A DNA stretch of 64,000 nucleotides, taken from the sequence record OK335775.1; one strand, written 5' to 3'. Below are positions 2,196-63,855 of this stretch, in pieces. Made by a program: the position numbers and the translations under genes. Origin of the DNA: Escherichia phage PSD2002. Position 1 is the stretch's first letter, and every line of letters begins with the position of its first letter. Below the pieces are notes generated by a model. The model saw nothing but the letters and a program-made list of their open reading frames with translations, had not been told where the DNA came from and made no database searches.

Positions 2196-2365
2196 TGAAA
2201 GTTTATTTAGAAACAATTGTTATATCAAATACAAATATTACGGCAGTCTCTCAAATCATCCTTGATTTTGAGGACGAAATAGCTTTTGCCGATTTTAAAG
2301 ATACCTTCGATGGCTATGAAAAAGGCCCTACATTCGAAGTATATCGTACACTGTTACCACTTTAA
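2195..2365 (+). CDS. small hypothetical ORF (56 aa), start overlaps ligase stop (TAATG)
   Basis: ATG overlapping ligase TAA; open frame MKVYLETIVISN... ends just inside a terminator hairpin; below the 60-aa track cutoff. Confidence 0.3.
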   Translation: MKVYLETIVISNTNITAVSQIILDFEDEIAFADFKDTFDGYEKGPTFEVYRTLLPL

Positions 2366-2384
2366 GGCCTTCGGGCCTTTTCTG
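2364..2384 (+). terminator. stem-loop AAGGCC-TTCG-GGCCTT followed by a short T-run
   Basis: Perfect 6-bp stem with tetraloop, then TTTTCT, between ligase operon and alt1. Confidence 0.45.
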
Positions 2385-2415
2385 GCATAAATAAGGTTAT
2401 TAAAGAGGAATTATT

Positions 2416-4311
2416 ATGTCCGAACAATTGAATGAGGTATTTGATGGTGATATAAATTTATCTGCTGTCAATTTAAACCCTAAACTTAAAGTCCCACAGA
2501 TTTGGAATATAAAGGCTGAAGGTAACGAGAACCTTGTTGCCCGCATGGTTTCATATACTTCCGAAGGCGATGTAATTCGTCAGGTTAAGCCTGGTGACAA
2601 GTATGTTCATGTCGTTTTAATGAGCCTATCGGCTAAAGGTTCTCCTGCCGAACTCAAAGGTGGATTAGGTACCAATCCTATTTCCGCTATTCGTTCTATA
2701 TTTGATATCGTCTATGAACAGGTCAAGGCCCTTCGTATGGACGCTGTTATGTTCCGTTTTCCTACCAAGAAAATGAAAGGGCAGGAAAAAGCTATACAGA
2801 GGGTATTGGCTAAATTAATAGCCTCTAGAGCAGGCGGACAGTTTAAAGTTCTTGATGCCTTGTATCAATTCACCGGTAAGCATTCGTATGTTTTTATCTA
2901 TCGTAAAAATAAAAATATAGAATCTATAAATGGTATTCCTAATATTAATTTAGAATTGTATACTAAAGTCGAATCTGAAGTCGGTGACGTGTATGTTTCA
3001 AAGAAAACAGGCGAAGATGTTACCAAACTAGAAGCTATAGCTAAGTCCATAGACGAAATAGAAAAATCACGTTCTGATAAAACTGTTATAACCAAAACAA
3101 AGGTTTCTAAACGTGCTGCTATCAATGCTTTATATCCTACAGCAGAGCCTACAGGATTGAGTAAATTTTCGGCAGAGCACAAAAAAGCTTATGCAGATTA
3201 TTCTGCTACTAGTTCCGTTCATTCTTCTGAAGATTCTAAAGAAAGCCAAATAGCTTTAGCCAGTAATAAAATATTAAAAGACACCTCTAAAGAAATGGCA
3301 GAATATTTGGATTATATTTTTAACGGTGTTAATCCATCATTTGAAGTAGACGAGCGCAAACTTAAACTAATTGCTGATATAAAGTTTGCTTTAGAGGCAT
3401 CAGATTCTTTAGATAAATCTAATAGTGTCATAGAGGCTTTAAAATCAGGTAAATCTCATGTAGACATTCTTAGACTAGTCGCTGCGGCCCTTTTAGATGA
3501 TTCAGTTAAAGGTACTTGGGCTAGAGAATCTAAAATCAAGGAAGTAATAAAATCCTTAGTAGCAGTTTATACAAAATCTATCCAACCGTTGTTTAAGATA
3601 TCTGATAATCCTAATTTATCCAAACCTCAAGAAGAGGCAGTCAAAAAGTATACTCGTGGCGGCTACAACCATATAAACAACTTTTTGCTAGGTAAAACAG
3701 ATACCACCGATGAAATGATAAAAATGATTGGTGAGTTGGATTCTACATTTGAAAATGGTACAAAACTTCCTAAAGGAACCATAGTGTATCGTTCTCAGAT
3801 AATGCCTACCGAAATGGCTTTGAATTCTATAAAACATAAGGTGATGTATCTTCCTATTTTTGCATCAACTTCATTGGCTCCTAATATTTTCGGTGAAATG
3901 GGTCATGCTCAATCCAACTTAGACCCTGAAGCTCTTTCTAGCGATATAGATAGTAATCTTGAAGACACCATTAAAAGTGCGACCGGAAGTGCTAGAGATA
4001 CCATTAAGCTAGGGTTAATTATTAAAGGTGCTGATAAAATTAAGGTTATTGTGCCCGGTGACTTGGCTAATTGGTCTACAGAAACCGAAGTAATTCTTCC
4101 TCGTGGGGTTATGCTTAAGATTAATAAAGTATACGGTGCTTCCAAGGGACCTATGGGTTCAATTGGTAAATATGTTTTAGTGGAATGTGAAGTTGTAGCT
4201 ACCGAGCAAATCACAGAGGAAGATTCATATAGCACCGGATTCTCGTTTGGAAATTATGATAGAATTATGTATGAAGATTCTATGGAAAAATTAGCAAATT
4301 TATTTAAATAG
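2416..4311 (+). CDS. alt: Alt-like ADP-ribosyltransferase, paralog 1 (631 aa)
   Basis: RBS AAAGAGGAA; N-terminal block shared with the next two ORFs; C-terminal ART signatures VYRSQ, FASTSL, ETEVILPRG; position next to gene 30 as in T4. Confidence 0.8.
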   Translation: MSEQLNEVFDGDINLSAVNLNPKLKVPQIWNIKAEGNENLVARMVSYTSEGDVIRQVKPGDKYVHVVLMSLSAKGSPAELKGGLGTNPISAIRSIFDIVYEQVKALRMDAVMFRFPTKKMKGQEKAIQRVLAKLIASRAGGQFKVLDALYQFTGKHSYVFIYRKNKNIESINGIPNINLELYTKVESEVGDVYVSKKTGEDVTKLEAIAKSIDEIEKSRSDKTVITKTKVSKRAAINALYPTAEPTGLSKFSAEHKKAYADYSATSSVHSSEDSKESQIALASNKILKDTSKEMAEYLDYIFNGVNPSFEVDERKLKLIADIKFALEASDSLDKSNSVIEALKSGKSHVDILRLVAAALLDDSVKGTWARESKIKEVIKSLVAVYTKSIQPLFKISDNPNLSKPQEEAVKKYTRGGYNHINNFLLGKTDTTDEMIKMIGELDSTFENGTKLPKGTIVYRSQIMPTEMALNSIKHKVMYLPIFASTSLAPNIFGEMGHAQSNLDPEALSSDIDSNLEDTIKSATGSARDTIKLGLIIKGADKIKVIVPGDLANWSTETEVILPRGVMLKINKVYGASKGPMGSIGKYVLVECEVVATEQITEEDSYSTGFSFGNYDRIMYEDSMEKLANLFK

Positions 4312-4319
4312 GATAGATT

Positions 4320-6401
4320 ATGACCCAATTAAATGAAGTGTTCGAGTCCGAAGGTACACTGCCTGTTGTGAACTTGAACCCAAAACTTAAAGTACCTCAG
4401 ATTTGGAAGATTGGAGACGCGGAGTCTCAGTTAGTAGCACGTATGGTATCCTACGCTTCTGAAGGTGATGCTATTAAACAAGTTAAAATGGGTGATAAAT
4501 ATGCCCACGTTATCCTTATGAGCCTTTCAGCTAAAGGTTCGCCTGCCGAACTTAAAGGCGGCTTAGGCCCTACTCCTGTAGATGCGATTAATACTATTTT
4601 TGATGTGGTTTATGACCAAGTTAAAAAGCTTCGTATGGATGCCGTGATGTTCCGTTTCCCTACTAAGAAAATGAAAGGTCAAGGCCCTATCGTTCAACGG
4701 ATTATCCAACGTTTGGTAGCACAGAAAACCGGTGGACGTTTTAAAGTGGTTCCGGCTATGTACCAATTTACCGGTAAACATACTTACATCCTGGTAGTTC
4801 GTAAACAAGCTGATATAGAAGATATCAAAGGTATGCCTGGAATTAATGCTGAATTGTATACTAAGGTAGATTCTGATGTCGGTGAAGTTTATATTTCTAA
4901 AAAAGAAGGCGTACAGGTTACTAAAGAAACTGCTATCGCCGGTAGTATTGCTAAGGTTGAAGAACGTCGCACTGATAAAATGGTTATAACCAAGACTAAG
5001 ATTTCTCGACGTGCTATTGCAGCAAGTCAATCGTTAGAATCTTATCGTAATGAAAGTGGGCTGTTTAAGAAATATGAAGCTACTGCAGTAGATTTTAATA
5101 AACCGGCAACAGTTCCATTAATCCCTGAGGCCCAGGAAATGGTCACTAATAACAATTCTCCTGCGGCTAAAAATAAGGTTGCTAATATAGTAGCTGAAGG
5201 CACTGCTGAAGAATTGCATTACGACTATAAATTGTTCCCACTTCACGGTATTGGTGAAATCCAAGAGAAAATTAAAGAGAAAATTCTTACAGCTATCAAA
5301 AATGAACCTTTGACATCTGTTAAAGCCCTGGAAAAATATGCCTCTACCATTAATACCATTTTCGAAGAATATAAAGGCGAGTGGCTGGCTATCCATAACA
5401 GAACTCGTAAAGGCCAACCTGACGACGTCTGGAATGAATTAACCGAGTCCAAGTGGAAAGCAGCCAAGACTAAGTTCATTAAAAAACGTGTGTATAGTTT
5501 TGCTGGCGTAGGTGGTGGTATTATGGTCGATATTACTATTGCTCGTGAGGGCTCTAAATATACCCCATCACAAAAGCGCGGCATCAGAGAATATTGTGGT
5601 TCAGGATATACAGACATAAATAATCTTCTTTTAGGACGTTATAATCCCCAGAACTATGAGGTTATGAGCGAAAAAGATATCGAATCTGCAGTTAATAATT
5701 TGGATTCCGCTTTTGAAAATGGCGACCGTATACCAGAAGGCATCACAGTTTATCGTGCACAGAGTATGACTGCTCCTATATACGAAGCACTAGTTAAAAA
5801 TAAAGTGTTCTATTTCAGAAATTTTGTATCTACTTCTTTAACTCCTATAATTTTCGGACGTTTTGGTGTTACACACGCTGGTATTGGTCTTTTAGAACCG
5901 GAAGTTCGCAACGAATTGACAGTTGATAAAAATGAAGAAGGAATAACTATTAATCCTAATGAAATAAGAGCGTATAAGGAAAATCCCGATTACGTTAAGG
6001 TTCAAATAGGATGGGCCATTGATGGGGCTCATAAAGTTAATGTCGTATATCCAGGAAATCTCGGAATAGCAACTGAAGCCGAAGTTATTCTACCGCGTGG
6101 ATTAATGGTCAAAGTTAATAAAATAACAGATGCTTCTAATAATGATGGAACAACATCTAGTAATACAAAACTCATCCAAGCTGAAGTTATGACAACAGAT
6201 GAGCTTCAAGAATCTGTTGTATATGATGGTGATGTACTAATGGAAACCGGCGAGTTGGTCGTATATCAAGATGACTTCGATACTTCCGAAAGCCCCTTAT
6301 CTTTTGATTCATTTGTTAAATCTACACGGTTTGATGTACTGCCTCTTTTGGCTTCATGCATAGACCTCTATGACATCCCAGAAAAATTCATCCAAGGGTA
6401 A
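4320..6401 (+). CDS. alt: Alt-like ADP-ribosyltransferase, paralog 2 (693 aa)
   Basis: Same conserved N-terminal block; C-terminal VYRAQ, FVSTSL, EAEVILPRG; central region unrelated to paralogs 1 and 3. Confidence 0.8.
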   Translation: MTQLNEVFESEGTLPVVNLNPKLKVPQIWKIGDAESQLVARMVSYASEGDAIKQVKMGDKYAHVILMSLSAKGSPAELKGGLGPTPVDAINTIFDVVYDQVKKLRMDAVMFRFPTKKMKGQGPIVQRIIQRLVAQKTGGRFKVVPAMYQFTGKHTYILVVRKQADIEDIKGMPGINAELYTKVDSDVGEVYISKKEGVQVTKETAIAGSIAKVEERRTDKMVITKTKISRRAIAASQSLESYRNESGLFKKYEATAVDFNKPATVPLIPEAQEMVTNNNSPAAKNKVANIVAEGTAEELHYDYKLFPLHGIGEIQEKIKEKILTAIKNEPLTSVKALEKYASTINTIFEEYKGEWLAIHNRTRKGQPDDVWNELTESKWKAAKTKFIKKRVYSFAGVGGGIMVDITIAREGSKYTPSQKRGIREYCGSGYTDINNLLLGRYNPQNYEVMSEKDIESAVNNLDSAFENGDRIPEGITVYRAQSMTAPIYEALVKNKVFYFRNFVSTSLTPIIFGRFGVTHAGIGLLEPEVRNELTVDKNEEGITINPNEIRAYKENPDYVKVQIGWAIDGAHKVNVVYPGNLGIATEAEVILPRGLMVKVNKITDASNNDGTTSSNTKLIQAEVMTTDELQESVVYDGDVLMETGELVVYQDDFDTSESPLSFDSFVKSTRFDVLPLLASCIDLYDIPEKFIQG

Positions 6402-6404
6402 ATA

Positions 6405-8528
6405 ATGGAAAATTTAAATGAGGTTTTTGATAGTGATTCCGCTAAAAACTATCCAGTAACAAATCTTAAACCGGGTTCCGGTATTCCACAGATTTTCTCT
6501 ATCCAAGCACCAGGTAATGATAATCTGGTTGCTCGTATGGTATCTTATGCGTCTCAAGGAGACGCTATTAAAATGGTTAAGCCGGGCGACAAATATGTTC
6601 ATGTTATCTTAATGAGTTTATCTGCTAAAGGCGCTCCGGCAGAACTCAAGGGTGGTTTGGGTACCGATCCACTCGGTACACTGAACACCATTTTCGATAC
6701 CATATATGAACAAATAAACAAACTTAAAATGGACGCGGTTTTGTTCCGTTTCCCTACTAAGAAAATGAAAGGTAAAGGTCCTACCGTTCAGCGCGTATTA
6801 GCTCGCTTGGCTATGGCTCGTACCGGTGGTAAGTTTAAAGTTGTTGACGACATGTTCCAATTCAGCGGAAAACATACCTACGTTCTTTTAGTACGTCGTG
6901 GTGCTAGTATTGAAGATATCAAGGGTATGCCTGAAATTAATGCCGATCTTTATACTAAAGTTGAGTCTAAAGTTGGCGAAGTGTATGTTTCTAAGAAAAC
7001 CGGCCAGGCTGTAAGTAAGGTCGAAGCCGTAGCGGCATCTATTGCACAAGTTGAAGAGAAACGTACTGATAAGGCTGTCATTACTCGTACTAAGATTTCG
7101 CGTCGTATGGCAGCGGCGGCGCAGTATTCTACTGCTGAGCCTGAAACTTTGTCCTCTAAAGAATTGCAGGTTTATAACGAGTTTGAAGCTTCTGTACCGG
7201 TTCACACGGCTGAAGGCCCTGAGAACGAAGGTATTGAACAGATTAGTCAGAACTTTAAAAAAGGTGCCATTACTAAAATGCGTCAGGCTTCTCAGTTTAA
7301 ATCTAAGAGCGAGGACCTTGCCAACTTTAGATACACTATTGCTCTCACACACGCTTTAATGACTGATAGTAAATTTAAACTAAATTATGCTAATAGAGAT
7401 AAACAAGGGTTTGAAATTTACTCTAATAATATGGCATTTTTTAATACAGAAGTCGATAGACTTTTAAGTGGCCTTTCGCAAATCAATACAACCAATAGTC
7501 TGGATATTATTAAGAAAATTGTTAATAACCTGAGTACCCGTTTTAAGGGTTCCCCTTCAGAGAAAGCATCTAGAATTGCTTTCGCTATGGAAGCCGTTTA
7601 TAAACTGGTTAACGATTCTATTAGTGATGCATATGCTTATTCAGGCGAGCTCATTAAACCTAAGGACCTAACCAAAGATGAAAGCAATGCTATTATTGAA
7701 TATTGCGCGGCTGAATATGCTCCTATGAACTTATTCCTTTTAGGTAAACCTGAATCCGAAAACAATACAACGGCTATTAAATTGATTAAGGATTTAGACT
7801 CAGCATTTACTAAGGGTATTAAACTTCCTAAGGGTACTATTTTGTATCGTGGTCAGGATTTGCCATACAAAATTCTGCGCCATAATATCGATAACAAAAC
7901 ATTTTACTTTAAGAACTTTGTGTCAGCCTCATTAAAGCCTAACATCTTTGGTGAATTCGGTAAAAATTATATGGCCCTCGACAACCAAGCCGTTTTTGTT
8001 GGTGGTGAAGGTTCTTTGTCCTCCGCTGATGAGTTGTTTAAATTGGCTAGTGGTAGTTCATCTGATGTGGGTGAAGTCGATGACGAAGAGGTAGAATGGG
8101 AAGAAGACGAGTTTGGTAATCCAATTGCACCTGAAGGTCCTGCAGATAGAATTGCTGAAATTGGTATGGTTATTCGAGGTGCTGAAGCAGTTAAAGTTAT
8201 CGCTCCTGGTGACCTTACAGAATATGCCGAAGAAGCAGAAATTATCCTTCCGCGTGGATTATTGTTGAAGGTTGATAAAGTAGCGGCTTTTGCCATGAAT
8301 GATAGAGTATCTCACAAATACCTTATGGAAGCTACCGTAACGCCTCCTTCAGAGCTCAGCGAATCTGTTTACGATGGTGACCATTTGATGGAAACTGGTG
8401 AAGTTCGCCTGATGGATGGATTTAGTCAATTCTTGGTTAATGAATCCGTTTCTGAAAGCAACGAAGCTATGGAAATCCTTGCCGCGTCTTTGGATATCTC
8501 TTCTTTATCAAATAAATTCAAAATGTAG
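6405..8528 (+). CDS. alt: Alt-like ADP-ribosyltransferase, paralog 3 (707 aa)
   Basis: Same N-terminal block; C-terminal LYRGQ, FVSASL, EAEIILPRG; acidic insert (VDDEEVEWEEDEF). Confidence 0.8.
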   Translation: MENLNEVFDSDSAKNYPVTNLKPGSGIPQIFSIQAPGNDNLVARMVSYASQGDAIKMVKPGDKYVHVILMSLSAKGAPAELKGGLGTDPLGTLNTIFDTIYEQINKLKMDAVLFRFPTKKMKGKGPTVQRVLARLAMARTGGKFKVVDDMFQFSGKHTYVLLVRRGASIEDIKGMPEINADLYTKVESKVGEVYVSKKTGQAVSKVEAVAASIAQVEEKRTDKAVITRTKISRRMAAAAQYSTAEPETLSSKELQVYNEFEASVPVHTAEGPENEGIEQISQNFKKGAITKMRQASQFKSKSEDLANFRYTIALTHALMTDSKFKLNYANRDKQGFEIYSNNMAFFNTEVDRLLSGLSQINTTNSLDIIKKIVNNLSTRFKGSPSEKASRIAFAMEAVYKLVNDSISDAYAYSGELIKPKDLTKDESNAIIEYCAAEYAPMNLFLLGKPESENNTTAIKLIKDLDSAFTKGIKLPKGTILYRGQDLPYKILRHNIDNKTFYFKNFVSASLKPNIFGEFGKNYMALDNQAVFVGGEGSLSSADELFKLASGSSSDVGEVDDEEVEWEEDEFGNPIAPEGPADRIAEIGMVIRGAEAVKVIAPGDLTEYAEEAEIILPRGLLLKVDKVAAFAMNDRVSHKYLMEATVTPPSELSESVYDGDHLMETGEVRLMDGFSQFLVNESVSESNEAMEILAASLDISSLSNKFKM

Positions 8529-8558
8529 TTTACAACACCACAAGGATGTGGTACTATT
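8528..8558 (+). promoter_or_regulatory. sigma70-type early promoter (GTTTACA -35, 17-bp spacer, TACTAT -10) with an inverted repeat in the spacer
   Basis: GTTTACA at 8528-8534, TACTAT about 8552-8557; inverted repeat ACCACA-agga-TGTGGT at 8537-8552. Confidence 0.45.
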
Positions 8559-8585
8559 ACCTTACACAAACATGAGGAGAACATT

Positions 8586-8876
8586 ATGAAATCTGCATTC
8601 CGTTTTAATGGTCAAGAACTGGTAGTTGAAAACGTTATCCCTGCTTCCGAAGAGTTTGACAGTGCCGTAGGTAATGAATTACGTCGAGTTTTCGGTGAAG
8701 ACAAACAGTTTGATATCCGACCTGTTGAGAATTTTTCTTATCCAGAACAAACCGAAAACATTTTTAACGGTGTAGTGACAGGACAACTCGAATCTGAAGC
8801 TCCTATTTCTATCACGGTCTTTGTTAAAAAGCAGCCATTAATGACTGCAGCAGGTTTCATTTCGTTCCGTAAATAA
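8586..8876 (+). CDS. hypothetical protein (96 aa), alt-downstream position
   Basis: Track ORF with ATG and RBS GAGGAG; own early promoter upstream; no recognisable motif. Confidence 0.5.
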   Translation: MKSAFRFNGQELVVENVIPASEEFDSAVGNELRRVFGEDKQFDIRPVENFSYPEQTENIFNGVVTGQLESEAPISITVFVKKQPLMTAAGFISFRK

Positions 8877-8883
8877 ACCCCTA

Positions 8884-8909
8884 AAGGAGAGCATATGCTC
8901 TCCTTTTTT
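8884..8909. terminator. palindromic hairpin GGAGAGCATATGCTCTCC + T6 between convergent genes
   Basis: 18-nt perfect palindrome followed by TTTTTT; lies between the + ORF ending 8876 and gp54 ending 8911. Confidence 0.6.
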
Positions 8910-8910
8910 G

Positions 8911-9864
8911 TTATAACAGCCTCGATATTCCATTATTAATAGCACGCCCACCAAATGTATTAACCAATCCTGTTAATCCACTAGAAGCTCCTGAAAGTCT
9001 ACTTAATTTGGCCACTGAAGAACTCAGCGAATTGCTCTCACTTAGCCCAGCGACGCCTTTAATAATCTTATCTTCCAACCACTCATAAGCAGCTTGTTTA
9101 CCAACTGCACCCGTCTGTACACTTCTATAAGCAAATGTAACATCAAATGAAGCAATTTGGTTATCACCGTCGTAGGATAATTCCGGTGACGAAACACCAA
9201 CAGGAACACAACCATTAAGCATTACTACTGTATGGGGTAATCCATTACGAGAATGAAGGTTGACTTGAATGTCGGCTTCAACATCCTCGGGTAATGCTCT
9301 TAATTGTGTAATAGGGTCTTGAACACTATTAACCCAATCATTAAAAGCACGGTAGTTAGCAGCTTCAGAATCCATACGGAAGCTTAATACTAATGGAGAA
9401 TATTCTCTTCCGGTAATTTTGATGTTAGGTGAGTTGTGGTTCAAATCCATTTCATAGTTCAAAGTATTATCCGGGATTTTAACGGCGTGGACTAAAAGAC
9501 CTGCCGTAGGATAGGCCATATTGAAAAAATCCATCAGATATGTACCTACTTCAAACTCCCCTAGTAAGCTCTGCACAACCCTGGATGACATAGCTCCAAT
9601 CAAATATTTACTTATGCCTGACTTACGAATCAACTTCTGAGTGCCCGCTGTCACTAATGTCGTAACACCTTGGGTCAACTCTCCTTGTGTAATACCAAAC
9701 AAATCGCTATTCAATGGGATATTGTTAAATAAAGCTCCACCAAACTGGTCGAGGAGCGCTTGGGATTTAGAAGAAGGAACCGTAGCAAATACTACACTAA
9801 ACAGGTTATTCCTCTGTAGGTCAATATTAATTGCCTGGTTCTGAAATTCTTGTAAAGTATACAT
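8911..9864 (-). CDS. 54: baseplate tail-tube initiator gp54
   Basis: 317 aa (T4 gp54 about 320 aa); N-terminus MYTLQEFQNQAIN resembles T4 gp54; synteny 54-48-29. Confidence 0.8.
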   Translation of the reverse strand: MYTLQEFQNQAINIDLQRNNLFSVVFATVPSSKSQALLDQFGGALFNNIPLNSDLFGITQGELTQGVTTLVTAGTQKLIRKSGISKYLIGAMSSRVVQSLLGEFEVGTYLMDFFNMAYPTAGLLVHAVKIPDNTLNYEMDLNHNSPNIKITGREYSPLVLSFRMDSEAANYRAFNDWVNSVQDPITQLRALPEDVEADIQVNLHSRNGLPHTVVMLNGCVPVGVSSPELSYDGDNQIASFDVTFAYRSVQTGAVGKQAAYEWLEDKIIKGVAGLSESNSLSSSVAKLSRLSGASSGLTGLVNTFGGRAINNGISRLL

Positions 9865-25057: not shown

Positions 25058-25090
25058 GTTTACAGCAAGATTCTCACATGTTACTATAGA
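25058..25090 (+). promoter_or_regulatory. early promoter (GTTTACA ... TTACTATAG ... ATCAAAACA)
   Basis: Matches the conserved early-promoter core repeated at 59859, 60427 and 63031. Confidence 0.45.
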
Positions 25091-25116
25091 CATATCAAAA
25101 CATGAGGAGATTAAAA

Positions 25117-25432: not shown

Positions 25433-26992
25433 TTAGATACCTTTAACATATACACGACGGAAGTAACCATTCAGACCAAGGCTGTTAACGATGTCAGGCA
25501 TACCGCTCTGAATACGTTTGGTAGGAGCCTGTGCAGACGGGTCAGCGAACGGGTTGATACCGATACCGTAACGAGTTTTGAAGCCCATTACCGGTTGGAA
25601 GTTCTTCGGATCGGAACCACGCAGCGGGGTCAGTGCAACGTATGGAGCATAGTAGATACCTGCGTCCATTTCGTTAGCGCCTTTATAACCGATGGTGAAG
25701 TAATCGGAACGTGCATACTGGTCGATGTAAACGCGATATTTACCACCAAGAACACCGGCAAATACTGCTTTGGTTGTGTCAACGTTGAAACCTTGACCCA
25801 GACCTTGAGCTGCATAACTTACAGAAGTATCAACTGCAGCCAGTACGTTAACTACGTTACGGGAAGCGATGATGAAGTTACCAGCACCACGACCGGTCTG
25901 ACGAGCGATTTCGGCTGCTTCTTTATCAATCTGGAACAGAAGGGCTTTAAAGCTCTCACCGGCCCAACGAGCACCACGGATATCAATCGGGTCCTGGAAG
26001 TCAAACACACCAGCTTTAGCGCCAACGGTGTTGGTCATACCAGATTTACCAACCTGTGCAGAGTAGTTAATCCAATCGATAACTTCACGGTTGATTTCGA
26101 GCATAATTTCGGTAGCAAGGATACCGGACAGTTCAGCATCTGCATCCATACCGTGTACTGCACGAAGGTCCTGTGCCAGTTCGATAGAGTAGCTTGCTTT
26201 CAGCTGACGGGATTTAGCTTCGATAACTTGTTTGTCGATGCGGAAGCCCATTTCGTTCCACGGGTTATCGGTAGAACCGTTAAAGCCTTCCTGAAGTTCG
26301 GCGATAGAAGTAGCCATACCTTCAGCCAATTCAGCCAACTTACCAGCTTCAATCAAAGCGGTAACAGCAACATCCAGTTTAGCGGCATCAGTAGCAGCAG
26401 CATCAACGGTTACGGCTTCGACAGCCTGGAAGTGTGCAGCACCGGTAGCTTCGAAGAAGTGAGAATAAATTTTACCAACTTCCAGAACTTTGCTTGCAGC
26501 CAGTGCTTCGAAAGTTTCAGCAGCACCCTGACCAGAGAACATAGCGTCTGGAGAATACATCGGATGGAAAGCTTCTTTAGCGCCAGAAGCGATAGGGTCT
26601 TTACCATAAACTGCACGAAGGGCAAATACCTGGCCGGTAGGGTTATTCAGAGGCTGAACACCACAAATATCAAAAGCAATCAGATGAGGAATAGCACGAC
26701 GAACCATACCCATTACTGCCGGCCCAATCTGAGTTACAGCACCAGAAGTCTGGCCAGCTGCGATATTGGTAGCATCATAACCGTGGTCACCACCAATTTC
26801 AGCTTCGGTCAGGAAAGAACCAAATGCTTCAGAGATTTTTTCATCACGATATTCCGGAGCAGTCAGGATGTCTTGTTCCTGGTTTTCGAAAATTTTAGCG
26901 ATGATAGCTTGTTTAGAAGCACCCACGATTTCAGGAAGGGCTTCGTTTTCCAGCAGAGCGGACCATTTTTGAACTAATGCATTCTTTTTCAT
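25433..26992 (-). CDS. 23: major capsid protein gp23
   Basis: 519 aa; near-colinear with T4 gp23 as recalled (QAIIAKIFENQE...GSFLTEAEIGGDHGY...YYAPYVALTPLRGSDPKNFQPVMGFKTRYGIGINPF). Confidence 0.95.
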   Translation of the reverse strand: MKKNALVQKWSALLENEALPEIVGASKQAIIAKIFENQEQDILTAPEYRDEKISEAFGSFLTEAEIGGDHGYDATNIAAGQTSGAVTQIGPAVMGMVRRAIPHLIAFDICGVQPLNNPTGQVFALRAVYGKDPIASGAKEAFHPMYSPDAMFSGQGAAETFEALAASKVLEVGKIYSHFFEATGAAHFQAVEAVTVDAAATDAAKLDVAVTALIEAGKLAELAEGMATSIAELQEGFNGSTDNPWNEMGFRIDKQVIEAKSRQLKASYSIELAQDLRAVHGMDADAELSGILATEIMLEINREVIDWINYSAQVGKSGMTNTVGAKAGVFDFQDPIDIRGARWAGESFKALLFQIDKEAAEIARQTGRGAGNFIIASRNVVNVLAAVDTSVSYAAQGLGQGFNVDTTKAVFAGVLGGKYRVYIDQYARSDYFTIGYKGANEMDAGIYYAPYVALTPLRGSDPKNFQPVMGFKTRYGIGINPFADPSAQAPTKRIQSGMPDIVNSLGLNGYFRRVYVKGI

Positions 26993-59858: not shown

Positions 59859-59889
59859 GTTTACTTTCCTGGATAGCCGTGATACTATA
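59859..59889 (+). promoter_or_regulatory. early promoter cassette (GTTTAC ... TGATACTATAGCCCTATCAAAACAA)
   Basis: 32-nt core identical to the copy at 60443-60472. Confidence 0.55.
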
Positions 59890-59925
59890 GCCCTATCAAA
59901 ACAAACTAACCAAACGGAAATCAAA

Positions 59926-60426: not shown

Positions 60427-60457
60427 GTTTACAACGGGCTTTAGCCGTGATACTATA
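60427..60457 (+). promoter_or_regulatory. early promoter cassette (GTTTACA ... TGATACTATAGCCCTATCAAAACAA)
   Basis: Duplicate of the cassette at 59859-59903. Confidence 0.55.
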
Positions 60458-60492
60458 GCCCTATCAAAACAAATGAGTGAATGGAGAATAAA

Positions 60493-63030: not shown

Positions 63031-63060
63031 GTTTACACCTCCTTTAAACATGATACTATA
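63031..63060 (+). promoter_or_regulatory. early promoter cassette (GTTTACA ... TGATACTATAGACCTATCAAAACAA)
   Basis: Third copy of the conserved early-promoter core. Confidence 0.55.
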
Positions 63061-63094
63061 GACCTATCAAAACAACAGAGTGAAGGAGAGTAAA

Positions 63095-63358
63095 ATGGAT
63101 AATTATGGTGAATTGTTTAATTTCTTTATGAAATGCGTTCCGGAAGAATTTGGTGCTACAGTTAACGATATTAAAGTTATCGGTCCTGAACACCCGGTGT
63201 ATGAAACCTATGCAGTAATGGGTAATGAAGATGGACAGTGGTATACAATTAAAGTTGTGATTAATATGTTCTCAGCTGAAGGTTACGCCAAATCGTCTAC
63301 CAAAGTTTACCATGGTAATGATTTTGATGCAGAAAATTATTTCAATAATATGAAATAA
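63095..63358 (+). CDS. hypothetical protein (87 aa)
   Basis: Track ORF 63080..63358 begins at GTG; ATG at 63095 follows GAAGGAGAG. Confidence 0.5.
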   Translation: MDNYGELFNFFMKCVPEEFGATVNDIKVIGPEHPVYETYAVMGNEDGQWYTIKVVINMFSAEGYAKSSTKVYHGNDFDAENYFNNMK

Positions 63359-63361
63359 AAC

Positions 63362-63397
63362 GTTTACATGGGCTCATGATTAAGATATTATGAGCCC
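63362..63397 (+). promoter_or_regulatory. early promoter (GTTTACA, 17-bp spacer, TATTAT) with 8-bp inverted repeat across spacer and -10
   Basis: GGGCTCAT at 63370-63377 pairs with ATGAGCCC at 63390-63397. Confidence 0.45.
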
Positions 63398-63416
63398 ATA
63401 ATTTGAGGAGAACATA

Positions 63417-63819: not shown

Positions 63820-63855
63820 GTTTACAACCCTCAGAGGACAGGGTATAATGTCCTC
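63820..63855 (+). promoter_or_regulatory. early promoter (GTTTACA, 17-bp spacer, TATAAT) with 7-bp inverted repeat flanking the -10
   Basis: GAGGACA at 63834-63840 pairs with TGTCCTC at 63849-63855. Confidence 0.45.

Follow-up and report, generated by a model that had tools for sequence, protein, structure and literature searches.

Hairpin-encoding spacer in the early promoter of alt.-3 of Escherichia phage PSD2002 and its predicted action on read-through RNA

In this work, the early promoter in front of the alt.-3 homolog was analysed in a stretch of 64,000 nucleotides (nt) of Escherichia phage PSD2002 (sequence record OK335775.1), which is called the window here and whose plus strand is the early strand of the phage. 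The promoter begins at position 8528, at the last base of the stop codon of an alt-like gene, and the spacer between its -35 and -10 regions encodes a short hairpin. We estimate, with a probability of about 0.7, that it is an early promoter of the published PeSL type (a class of promoter/stem-loop cassettes), the hairpin of which would act on read-through RNA and uncouple alt.-3 from upstream transcription. The evidence consists of compensatory changes around an invariant loop in the orthologous promoters and of a match between early promoter spacers and their own downstream sequences throughout the genome. Between 8000 and 9000, the window shares 100% identity with Escherichia phage QL01 (Dhakavirus, Straboviridae). 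Outside this segment the identity to QL01 (NC_028847) is about 99%, with a net offset of approximately 163 bp between 1-356 and 8000-9000 and further indels before 64000. The features are collected in Table 1.

Anatomy of the alt.-3 promoter

An immediate-early promoter of alt.-3 at 8528 is supported by its T4-type features, namely the AT-rich upstream region, GTTTACA, the 17-bp spacer, TGn and TACTAT, from which its activity is inferred. By its sequence, it is a composite element in which an upstream stop codon, an AT-rich tract, the -35 region, the hairpin-encoding spacer, TGn with the -10 region, a Shine-Dalgarno (SD) sequence and ATG are combined. The first-pass annotation had placed an early promoter here with GTTTACA starting at the last base of the alt stop codon, and both the coordinates and the T4 early-promoter type agree with our analysis: the TAG of the open reading frame (ORF) 6405..8528 occupies 8526-8528, and GTTTACA starts with G8528. 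Counted from TTTACA, the spacer covers 8535-8551. The annotated 6-bp inverted repeat is indeed present and perfect, with ACCACA at 8537-8542, the loop AGGA at 8543-8546 and TGTGGT at 8547-8552, and the last T of the second arm is the first base of the -10 hexamer. The idea of a stem across the -10 needs correction at this site, since the stem fills the spacer but only touches the first base of the -10 region. The promoter serves alt.-3 as its sole gene, and its distance to the SD and ATG (28 nt) is like that in the paralogous promoters described below, most of which (among 36) also carry TGn-TACTAT.

The predicted free energy (dG) of the hairpin is -6.9 as RNA and -5.3 as DNA. In the frame shared with the orthologs it reads ACCAC[AAGGAU]GUGGU, which is a GGA hexaloop closed by C-G and A-U. 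The hairpin begins 9 nt past the alt stop codon and the predicted transcription start (~8564) lies downstream of the stem, so that the hairpin would be present only in read-through RNA from upstream. The RNA from the predicted start of the promoter itself is nearly unstructured, with a minimum free energy (MFE) of -1.7. A weak second helix is predicted between an anti-SD CCUUA and the SD region, and because CCUUA is located just upstream of +1, this helix would also exist only in read-through RNA. The 5' strand of a masking-type structure (8537-8552 and CCUUA at 8560-8564) is therefore placed upstream of or at the predicted start.

Covariation of the hairpin among orthologs

Orthologs from 12 genera, T4 included, keep the promoter, the SD and the ATG in front of alt.-3, among them Tequatro-, Mosig-, Karam-, Jiaoda-, Dhaka-, Gapriver-, Moon-, Winkler-, Kagamiyama-, Marfa- and Kanagawavirus, and the locus is syntenic between alt and gene 54 across these genera; TGAGGA-N7-ATGAAA is kept in the orthologs. 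Protein-pattern scans of IMG/VR gave only 9-19 alt.-3 loci, and a scan with a degenerate DNA pattern returned mostly unrelated promoters, out of which 17 useful orthologs were filtered. A common frame was recognized in 12 distinct spacers (nine named genera and one unassigned contig), consisting of a 4-6-bp stem and the hexaloop A(A/U)GGA(N). In the ortholog alignment (A4), 84.7% of the cells are paired compared with 59.6% after shuffling (0/500), and changes on both sides were observed in five of the six pairs. The covariation score was 0.586 versus 0.132 in shuffled alignments (0/500), and partners that were slid against each other gave 0.01-0.20. Pair P4 alone was seen as C-G, U-A, A-U, G-C and G.U, and for the three wobble pairs within the helix, G.U was found on the sense strand. 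Between orthologs, the stem is displaced by 1-2 bp with respect to the -10 region, and the GGA of the loop is invariant among those that bear the hairpin. As far as sequences can tell, the compensatory changes and the conserved GGA show selection on the hairpin, both for its pairing and for a specific loop.

Tequatrovirus and Kanagawavirus are without this hairpin. In T4, folding gives instead a 13-bp helix between the spacer CCUCGUGUUGUGU and ACAUAACAUGAGG that buries the SD (dG -23, z -4.25), and in Kosakonia phage 305 the SD is buried by an anti-SD after the -10 region. The SD is mostly paired in the predicted read-through RNA of QL01, Bp7, EcS1, X20, MY02, T4 and Kosakonia phage 305. A short anti-SD between -10 and +1 was found in QL01, Bp7, EcS1, X20 (GUUCCU/AGGAAC) and MY02, where the unpaired probability of the SD is at most 0.26.

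Near-identical promoter-leader cassettes, AGTCCCTCGTGTTGTGT-TATAGT-AGTCTTACTGACATAACATGAGGA, were also observed in T4 (NC_000866) at approximately 123,040-123,100 (alt.-3) and 136,290-136,340 (alc). This repeat looks like a PeSL-type duplication within T4.

Complementarity between early promoter spacers and their leaders

For a census of early promoters, a near-whole genome was assembled from the window and three QL01 segments. The strict motif G-TTTACN-N16/17-TAnn[AG]T had 38 matches on the early strand and one on the other strand, and an SD with a start codon follows 36 of the 38. When the RNAs of these 36 promoters were folded from the spacer to the ATG, the summed MFE was -397 kcal/mol versus -256 +/- 11.6 kcal/mol with shuffled spacers (z -12.1, 0/300). 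Real spacers that were swapped between the 36 promoters gave -296.5 +/- 12.9 (z -7.8, 0/200), which means that each spacer is matched to its own downstream sequence. The same pipeline applied to 97 kb of T4 with 25 promoters resulted in z -10.2. RNAs starting at the predicted +1 of the promoters have an MFE near 0 in most cases, both in QL01 and in T4.

Three geometries were distinguished among the 36 promoters. In the first, a local hairpin is formed within the spacer, and the site at 8528 is the strongest such case. In the second, the 5' arm lies in the spacer and the 3' arm just past the -10 region (60427, 63362, 63820 and others). In the third, seen at 63031 and at least seven other promoters, the spacer begins with an anti-SD (TCTCCT...), which pairs with the SD of the gene behind the promoter. 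The recurrence of a stem within the promoter, which had been annotated at 63370-63397 and 63834-63855, proved to be real by folding at both places. Paralogs of the promoter at 63820 elsewhere in the genome carry the compensatory variants GGGACC/GGTCC and GGGAGC/GCTCC. The larger stems at the other promoters are without U-tracts.

Further observations concern the anti-SD promoters and the length of the cassette. At least eight early promoters have an anti-SD (TCTCCTGTAG, TCTCCTCATG, CTCCTT...) at the start of the spacer, with 6-10 bp of pairing to the SD; for example, 63039-63046 pairs with 63081-63088 (window 63031-63095), and others are located in QL01 (L037rc 7976 and 10472; L036rc 2662 and 42118; L038rc 30680). 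Compensatory changes are again seen between such paralogs (TCTCCTGTAG/CTACAGGAGA versus TCTCCAGTAG/CTACTGGAG). Read-through RNA over these promoters would be translationally masked and their own RNA would be open, which would be the principle of e, soc and 49 at early promoters. The initially transcribed region is repeated as well (TACTAT-AGACCTATCAAC/AAAAC...) at 25064-25095, 59865-59895, 60433-60465, 63037-63075 and most other early promoters; thus, the conserved cassette reaches about 20 nt beyond the -10 region. This extent fits the conservation over ~100 bp that has been claimed for PeSLs.

Proposed mechanism

We hypothesize that two kinds of RNA lead into alt.-3. Polymerase initiating at ~8564 would produce mRNA with an open leader and without the hairpin, and read-through RNA from the upstream alt genes would carry the hairpin, the anti-SD CCUUA and the SD. 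The hairpin would then act post-transcriptionally on the read-through RNA and uncouple alt.-3 expression from upstream transcription, most likely by reduced translation of alt.-3 from this RNA. Since masking of the alt.-3 SD in read-through RNA is predicted for this locus in T4, it is also the most economical reading at 8528. Of the two roles that had been suggested for the stem, the RNA hairpin in read-through transcripts is favoured, because the stem is located upstream of the predicted +1, its arms show covariation and the tolerated mismatches within the helix are G.U on the sense strand.

The read-through into alt.-3 would come from the unit of the alt genes. Three tandem full-length Alt paralogs (631, 693 and 707 amino acids, aa) are encoded at 2416-8528 of the window, in comparison with one alt and the remnants alt.-1 and alt.-2 in T4. 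In front of the first paralog (window 2365-2418), a CUUCGG-type hairpin terminator (GGCCTTCGGGCC followed by TTTTCT) precedes a late-promoter-like CATAAATA at 2385-2392, an SD and the ATG. With this terminator and CATAAATA ahead of them, the three alt genes look like a separate, probably late, unit. On the plus strand, the region upstream of the alt genes has no canonical late promoter TATAAATA and only the CATAAATA variant was found.

Several points weigh against an action on read-through RNA. The site at 8528 alone is only marginally non-random: the spacer-shuffle test gave p ~0.03, and the hairpin compared with shuffled sequences gave z -2.5 as a 20-mer (3/200) and z -1.3 as a 35-mer (20/200). 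The ortholog alignment was anchored by hand on the loop, which favours structure. The hairpin at 8537-8552 itself makes no contact with the SD, and the CCUUA/UGAGG helix is weak, with 5 bp of which one is G.U. In KMI12, TH55 and CC31 an open SD is predicted, so masking by pairing is not universal. In a context of 131 nt, an alternative pairing of 8480-8492 with 8541-8553 is obtained (z -1.3, not significant). Minus-strand RNA at 8529-8563 extends the helix to 11 bp via G.U pairs (dG -10.7, z -2.4); it would be relevant only in the case of gene 54 transcription beyond the terminator at 8883-8906, and the plus strand is favoured because the wobble pairs of the orthologs within the helix are G.U on the sense strand. 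Moreover, the stem-loop of PeSL211/210 in RB49/phi1 was reported to cut downstream lacZ about as much as rrnB T1 (PMC2839356).

Alternative explanations

This last result belongs to the function that was proposed by the PeSL authors, in which the hairpin would be a transcription attenuator or terminator for the transcripts of the alt operon, or would stabilise their 3' end. A position 9 nt past the alt stop codon is also a natural place for a 3'-end structure. On the other hand, the stem has only 6 bp with dG -6.9 and is followed by UACUAUUACCUUAC without a U-run, a terminator scan did not list 8537-8552 although it detected 8883-8906, and the real terminator sits 330 nt downstream of the hairpin. 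The missing U-tracts of the larger stems at other promoters point in the same direction, and neither a terminator nor a stabiliser needs a conserved loop such as the invariant GGA. We regard this explanation as rather unlikely but still as a serious competitor, and its simplest form, an intrinsic terminator, was rejected for the missing U-tract.

The invariant GGA leads to a second possibility, that host CsrA, or a different protein recognizing GGA loops, binds the hairpin. As a dimer, it would connect the GGA of the loop (8544-8546) with the GGA of the SD (8576-8578) and silence alt.-3 on read-through RNA only. The two are 32 nt apart, and the bridging range of CsrA is 10-63 nt (PMC7652899). 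The core ACAAGGAUGU matches 10/10 core positions of the CsrA consensus RUACARGGAUGU from in vitro selection (SELEX), with CC in place of the two 5' positions (RU). Furthermore, CsrA prefers a hexaloop with AC/GU closing pairs (PMC7652899), and ACCAC[AAGGAU]GUGGU has this structure, with GGA in the hexaloop. The stems co-vary around a loop GGA that does not change. The spacer of the imm promoter forms a similar hairpin, TACCAC[AAGGAAC]GTGGTA (QL01 L036 ~26,850-26,910, directly past the gene 43 stop), and its Gaprivervirus ortholog, obtained from IMG/VR loci L171/L172, has the same kind of hairpin with a different stem, ACGGCA[AUGGAU]UGCCGU. Six of the 12 CAWGGATG sites on the early strand are intergenic hairpins whose stems have 6 bp or more, where the intergenic status was judged from the sequence context because an ORF-based classifier was unreliable, and the T4 promoter P(rIIA.1) carries UACCACAAGGAUGUGGUA. 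A host factor would be needed because the phage is without a CsrA homolog; the E. coli CsrA sequence, used as the query, had no match in the QL01 or T4 sequence.

Against this stands that the CsrA match is a post hoc observation. ACARGGATGT is matched once in the window, by the core ACAAGGATGT (8540-8549), and a single match over such a length is not rare (0.30 expected). Several orthologs depart from the consensus (AUGGAA, AAGGAC), and GGA-loop hairpins are only mildly enriched genome-wide (91 versus 67 +/- 8). No literature linking CsrA to T4-like mRNAs was found, and CsrB is reportedly stabilised in T4 infection, which would lower free CsrA (PMC9697503). A role of CsrA at this hairpin is accordingly quite doubtful. 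With similarly low confidence, it may be proposed that a previously unrecognised class of GGA-loop hairpins (core CA-W-GGA-UG) exists in the early promoters and intergenic regions of T4-type phages, is read by host CsrA or some other GGA-loop-binding protein, and silences or tunes read-through transcripts only. The candidate members are the promoters of alt.-3 and imm, the modA-side promoters, T4 rIIA.1 and T4 ndd.6. Intergenic hairpins with the core CA-(A/T)GGA-TG and 6-8-bp stems recur in promoters or directly before SDs in QL01 (L038rc 2027 and 27885; L037rc 2489; L036rc 3253 and 5247) and in T4 (~2445 and ~49903); one example is ACCACA-TGGA-TGTGGT immediately before AGGAGG-ATG.

It is also conceivable that the stem has no function of its own, as a chance palindrome or as a by-product of the PeSL-type recombination that spreads promoter cassettes. 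The significance of the single site is weak, near-identical spacers at non-orthologous promoters (QL01 imm, T4 rIIA.1, T4 ndd.6) are consistent with cassette spread, and T4 carries a nearly identical cassette at alt.-3 and alc. The compensatory changes and the conserved loop at the same locus across nine genera, together with the match between spacers and their own downstream sequences (z -7.8), make this explanation very unlikely. Recombination mediated by the PeSL at this promoter had been suspected from an indel in close relatives and was rejected, because the indel lies within gene 54; it is a 24-nt indel (8933-8957) at the 3' end of the gene in comparison with IME281-like phages, and the sole one near the locus in close relatives. 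A RegB cleavage site was rejected too, since the loops (AGGAU, UGGAU, UGGAAG) never hold GGAG.

Finally, a DNA operator for a dimeric regulator such as an early-promoter shut-off factor, suggested by the classic repressor position of the palindrome CACA-N4-TGTG between -35 and -10 and by the unexplained shut-off of T4 early promoters (PMC2988021), is highly improbable, because the arms differ among promoters of the same genome, change between orthologs by compensatory substitutions, tolerate G.T inside the helix and shift by 1-2 bp against the -10 region, while the asymmetric centre (GGA) and not the half-sites is conserved, which is the opposite of a dimeric operator. The protein-binding DNA site of the first-pass annotation is disfavoured on these grounds, and a hairpin acting in read-through RNA remains our preferred reading.

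Features of the locus and its surroundings

The alt.-3 transcription unit ends at the bidirectional terminator (8883-8906), the equivalent of which is annotated on both strands in the PhAPEC2 record, and gene 54 lies beyond it in convergent orientation. An Rfam scan of 8300-9000 yielded nothing relevant and only two sub-threshold small RNA matches at the terminator.

Table 1. Coordinates in the window of the alt.-3 promoter region and of other early promoters with predicted stems
Feature	Position	Strand	Basis
Third tandem Alt-like ADP-ribosyltransferase gene	6405..8528	+	ORF list; Pfam ADPrib_exo_Tox 2.6e-17; QL01 annotation
AT-rich upstream (UP-like) region	8498..8527	+	80% A+T vs 60% window-wide
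-35 region GTTTACA, hexamer TTTACA 8529-8534	8528..8534	+	Invariant across orthologs
Hairpin-forming inverted repeat ACCACA-AGGA-TGTGGT inside the spacer	8537..8552	+	Folding, ortholog covariation
Extended -10 TGG (T8549-G8550 = TGn) and hexamer TACTAT 8552-8557	8549..8557	+	Consensus match
Weak second helix, anti-SD CCUUA 8560-8564 with UGAGG 8573-8577	8560..8577	+	Folding; SD unpaired probability 0.24
Predicted transcription start, A, 7 nt past -10	8564	+	Inferred from standard sigma-70 geometry
SD GAGGAG 8574-8579 and ATG 8586-8588 of alt.-3	8574..8588	+	Sequence
alt.-3 homolog, 96 aa, DUF5498	8586..8876	+	Pfam DUF5498 2.9e-34; T4 alt.-3 synteny
Bidirectional intrinsic terminator between alt.-3 (+) and gene 54 (-)	8883..8906	both	10-bp stem and T-run, terminator scan
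Early promoter, GGGCU...AGCCC enclosing -10	60427..60460	+	dG -11, z -3.1
Early promoter GTTTACA-N17-TATTAT, 13-bp helix 63368-63399 enclosing -10	63362..63399	+	dG -20.1, z -7.1, 0/200 shuffles
Early promoter, GAGGAC/GTCCTC flanking TATAAT, 7-bp helix 63834-63855	63820..63855	+	dG ~-12, z -1.7

Significance

This work mainly confirms that PeSL-type promoter/stem-loop cassettes extend to Dhakavirus. It also indicates that the stem at one conserved locus is under selection, for which no covariation test was made in the PeSL papers. In QL01 and T4, the early promoter spacers are systematically complementary to their own downstream leaders. It would mean that the sequence between -35 and +1 additionally serves as an RNA element by which read-through transcripts are set apart from promoter-proximal ones, and the principle of e, soc, 49 and I-TevI would be extended to early promoters. 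Together with the GGA loop considered next, this is relevant to how these phages keep tightly packed genes independent of transcription from upstream and to the construction of phage expression cassettes. The invariant GGA loop offers a testable hypothesis of a role of host CsrA in T4-like gene expression; if the GGA-loop class were true, the phage would use a global regulator of the host on read-through transcripts only and leave the promoter-proximal ones free.

Comparison with known systems

PeSLs were described in RB49/phi1 (Arbiol et al. 2010; PMC2839356) and later also in PST/T4 and nt-1/KVP40 (Comeau et al. 2014; PMC4122927); for JS98, a Dhakavirus, PeSL-like sequences were briefly noted (PMC2839356). 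By definition, a PeSL consists of an upstream stop codon in an AT-rich tract, the -35 and -10 regions, a stem-loop, an SD and an ATG, and among five positional subclasses the stem-loop is most often found over the -10 or in the interval from -35 to -10 (PMC2839356). Judged by its sequence, the alt.-3 element matches this class, in the subclass "between -35 and -10", and its arrangement was thus already known. It has the same order of parts, with the stop TAG overlapping the G of the -35 region, 80% AT at 8498-8527 and the SD and ATG at the 3' end. The boxes are of the sigma-70 type by sequence and 17 bp apart (TTTACA-17-TACTAT with TGn), the 6-bp stem is located as in one of the two commonest subclasses, the architecture is present in many copies per genome (36 here) and G.T pairs are tolerated in the stems. 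Unlike in PeSLs with near-perfect TTGACA/TATAAT, the promoter is of the T4 type GTTTACA/TACTAT, and the stem is short and not polyG/polyC. The published stem-loops of T4/PST PeSLs are just upstream of the promoter, whereas the 5' arms lie inside the spacers here and in T4. The alt.-3 copy is located at a syntenic, conserved locus and not in a hyperplastic region beside an ORFan, and it shows no sign of terminator features or of recombination.

Translational masking of read-through RNA has been documented in T4 for e, soc, 49 and I-TevI (PMC3014915). The likeness is that only upstream promoters yield RNA with the 5' strand of the structure and the transcripts of the proximal promoter are open. 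The T4 alt.-3 promoter and approximately 8-10 QL01 promoters (spacer TCTCCT... with the SD) fit this principle exactly. The documented cases differ in that they involve late or middle promoters and not early ones. Moreover, the two arms at 8537-8552 are located upstream of +1 and leave out the SD, which is touched only by the weak CCUUA/UGAGG helix.

With the CsrA/RsmA hairpins (glgC leader, CsrB repeats), the alt.-3 hairpin shares the GGA hexaloop closed by AC/GU, the 10/10 core and a second GGA in the SD. It differs from them in its phage context and in that the candidate site would exist in read-through RNA only, and some orthologs deviate at R and U. In comparison with T4 early promoters (UP/-35/TGn/-10; PMC2988021), the alt.-3 promoter has the AT-rich upstream region, which belongs to the definitions of both T4 early promoters and PeSLs (PMC2988021, PMC2839356), as well as GTTTAC, TGn and TAnnAT, and its ortholog is the sequence in front of T4 alt.-3. 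Nothing essential differs from these promoters, and the spacer hairpin lies outside the promoter definition.

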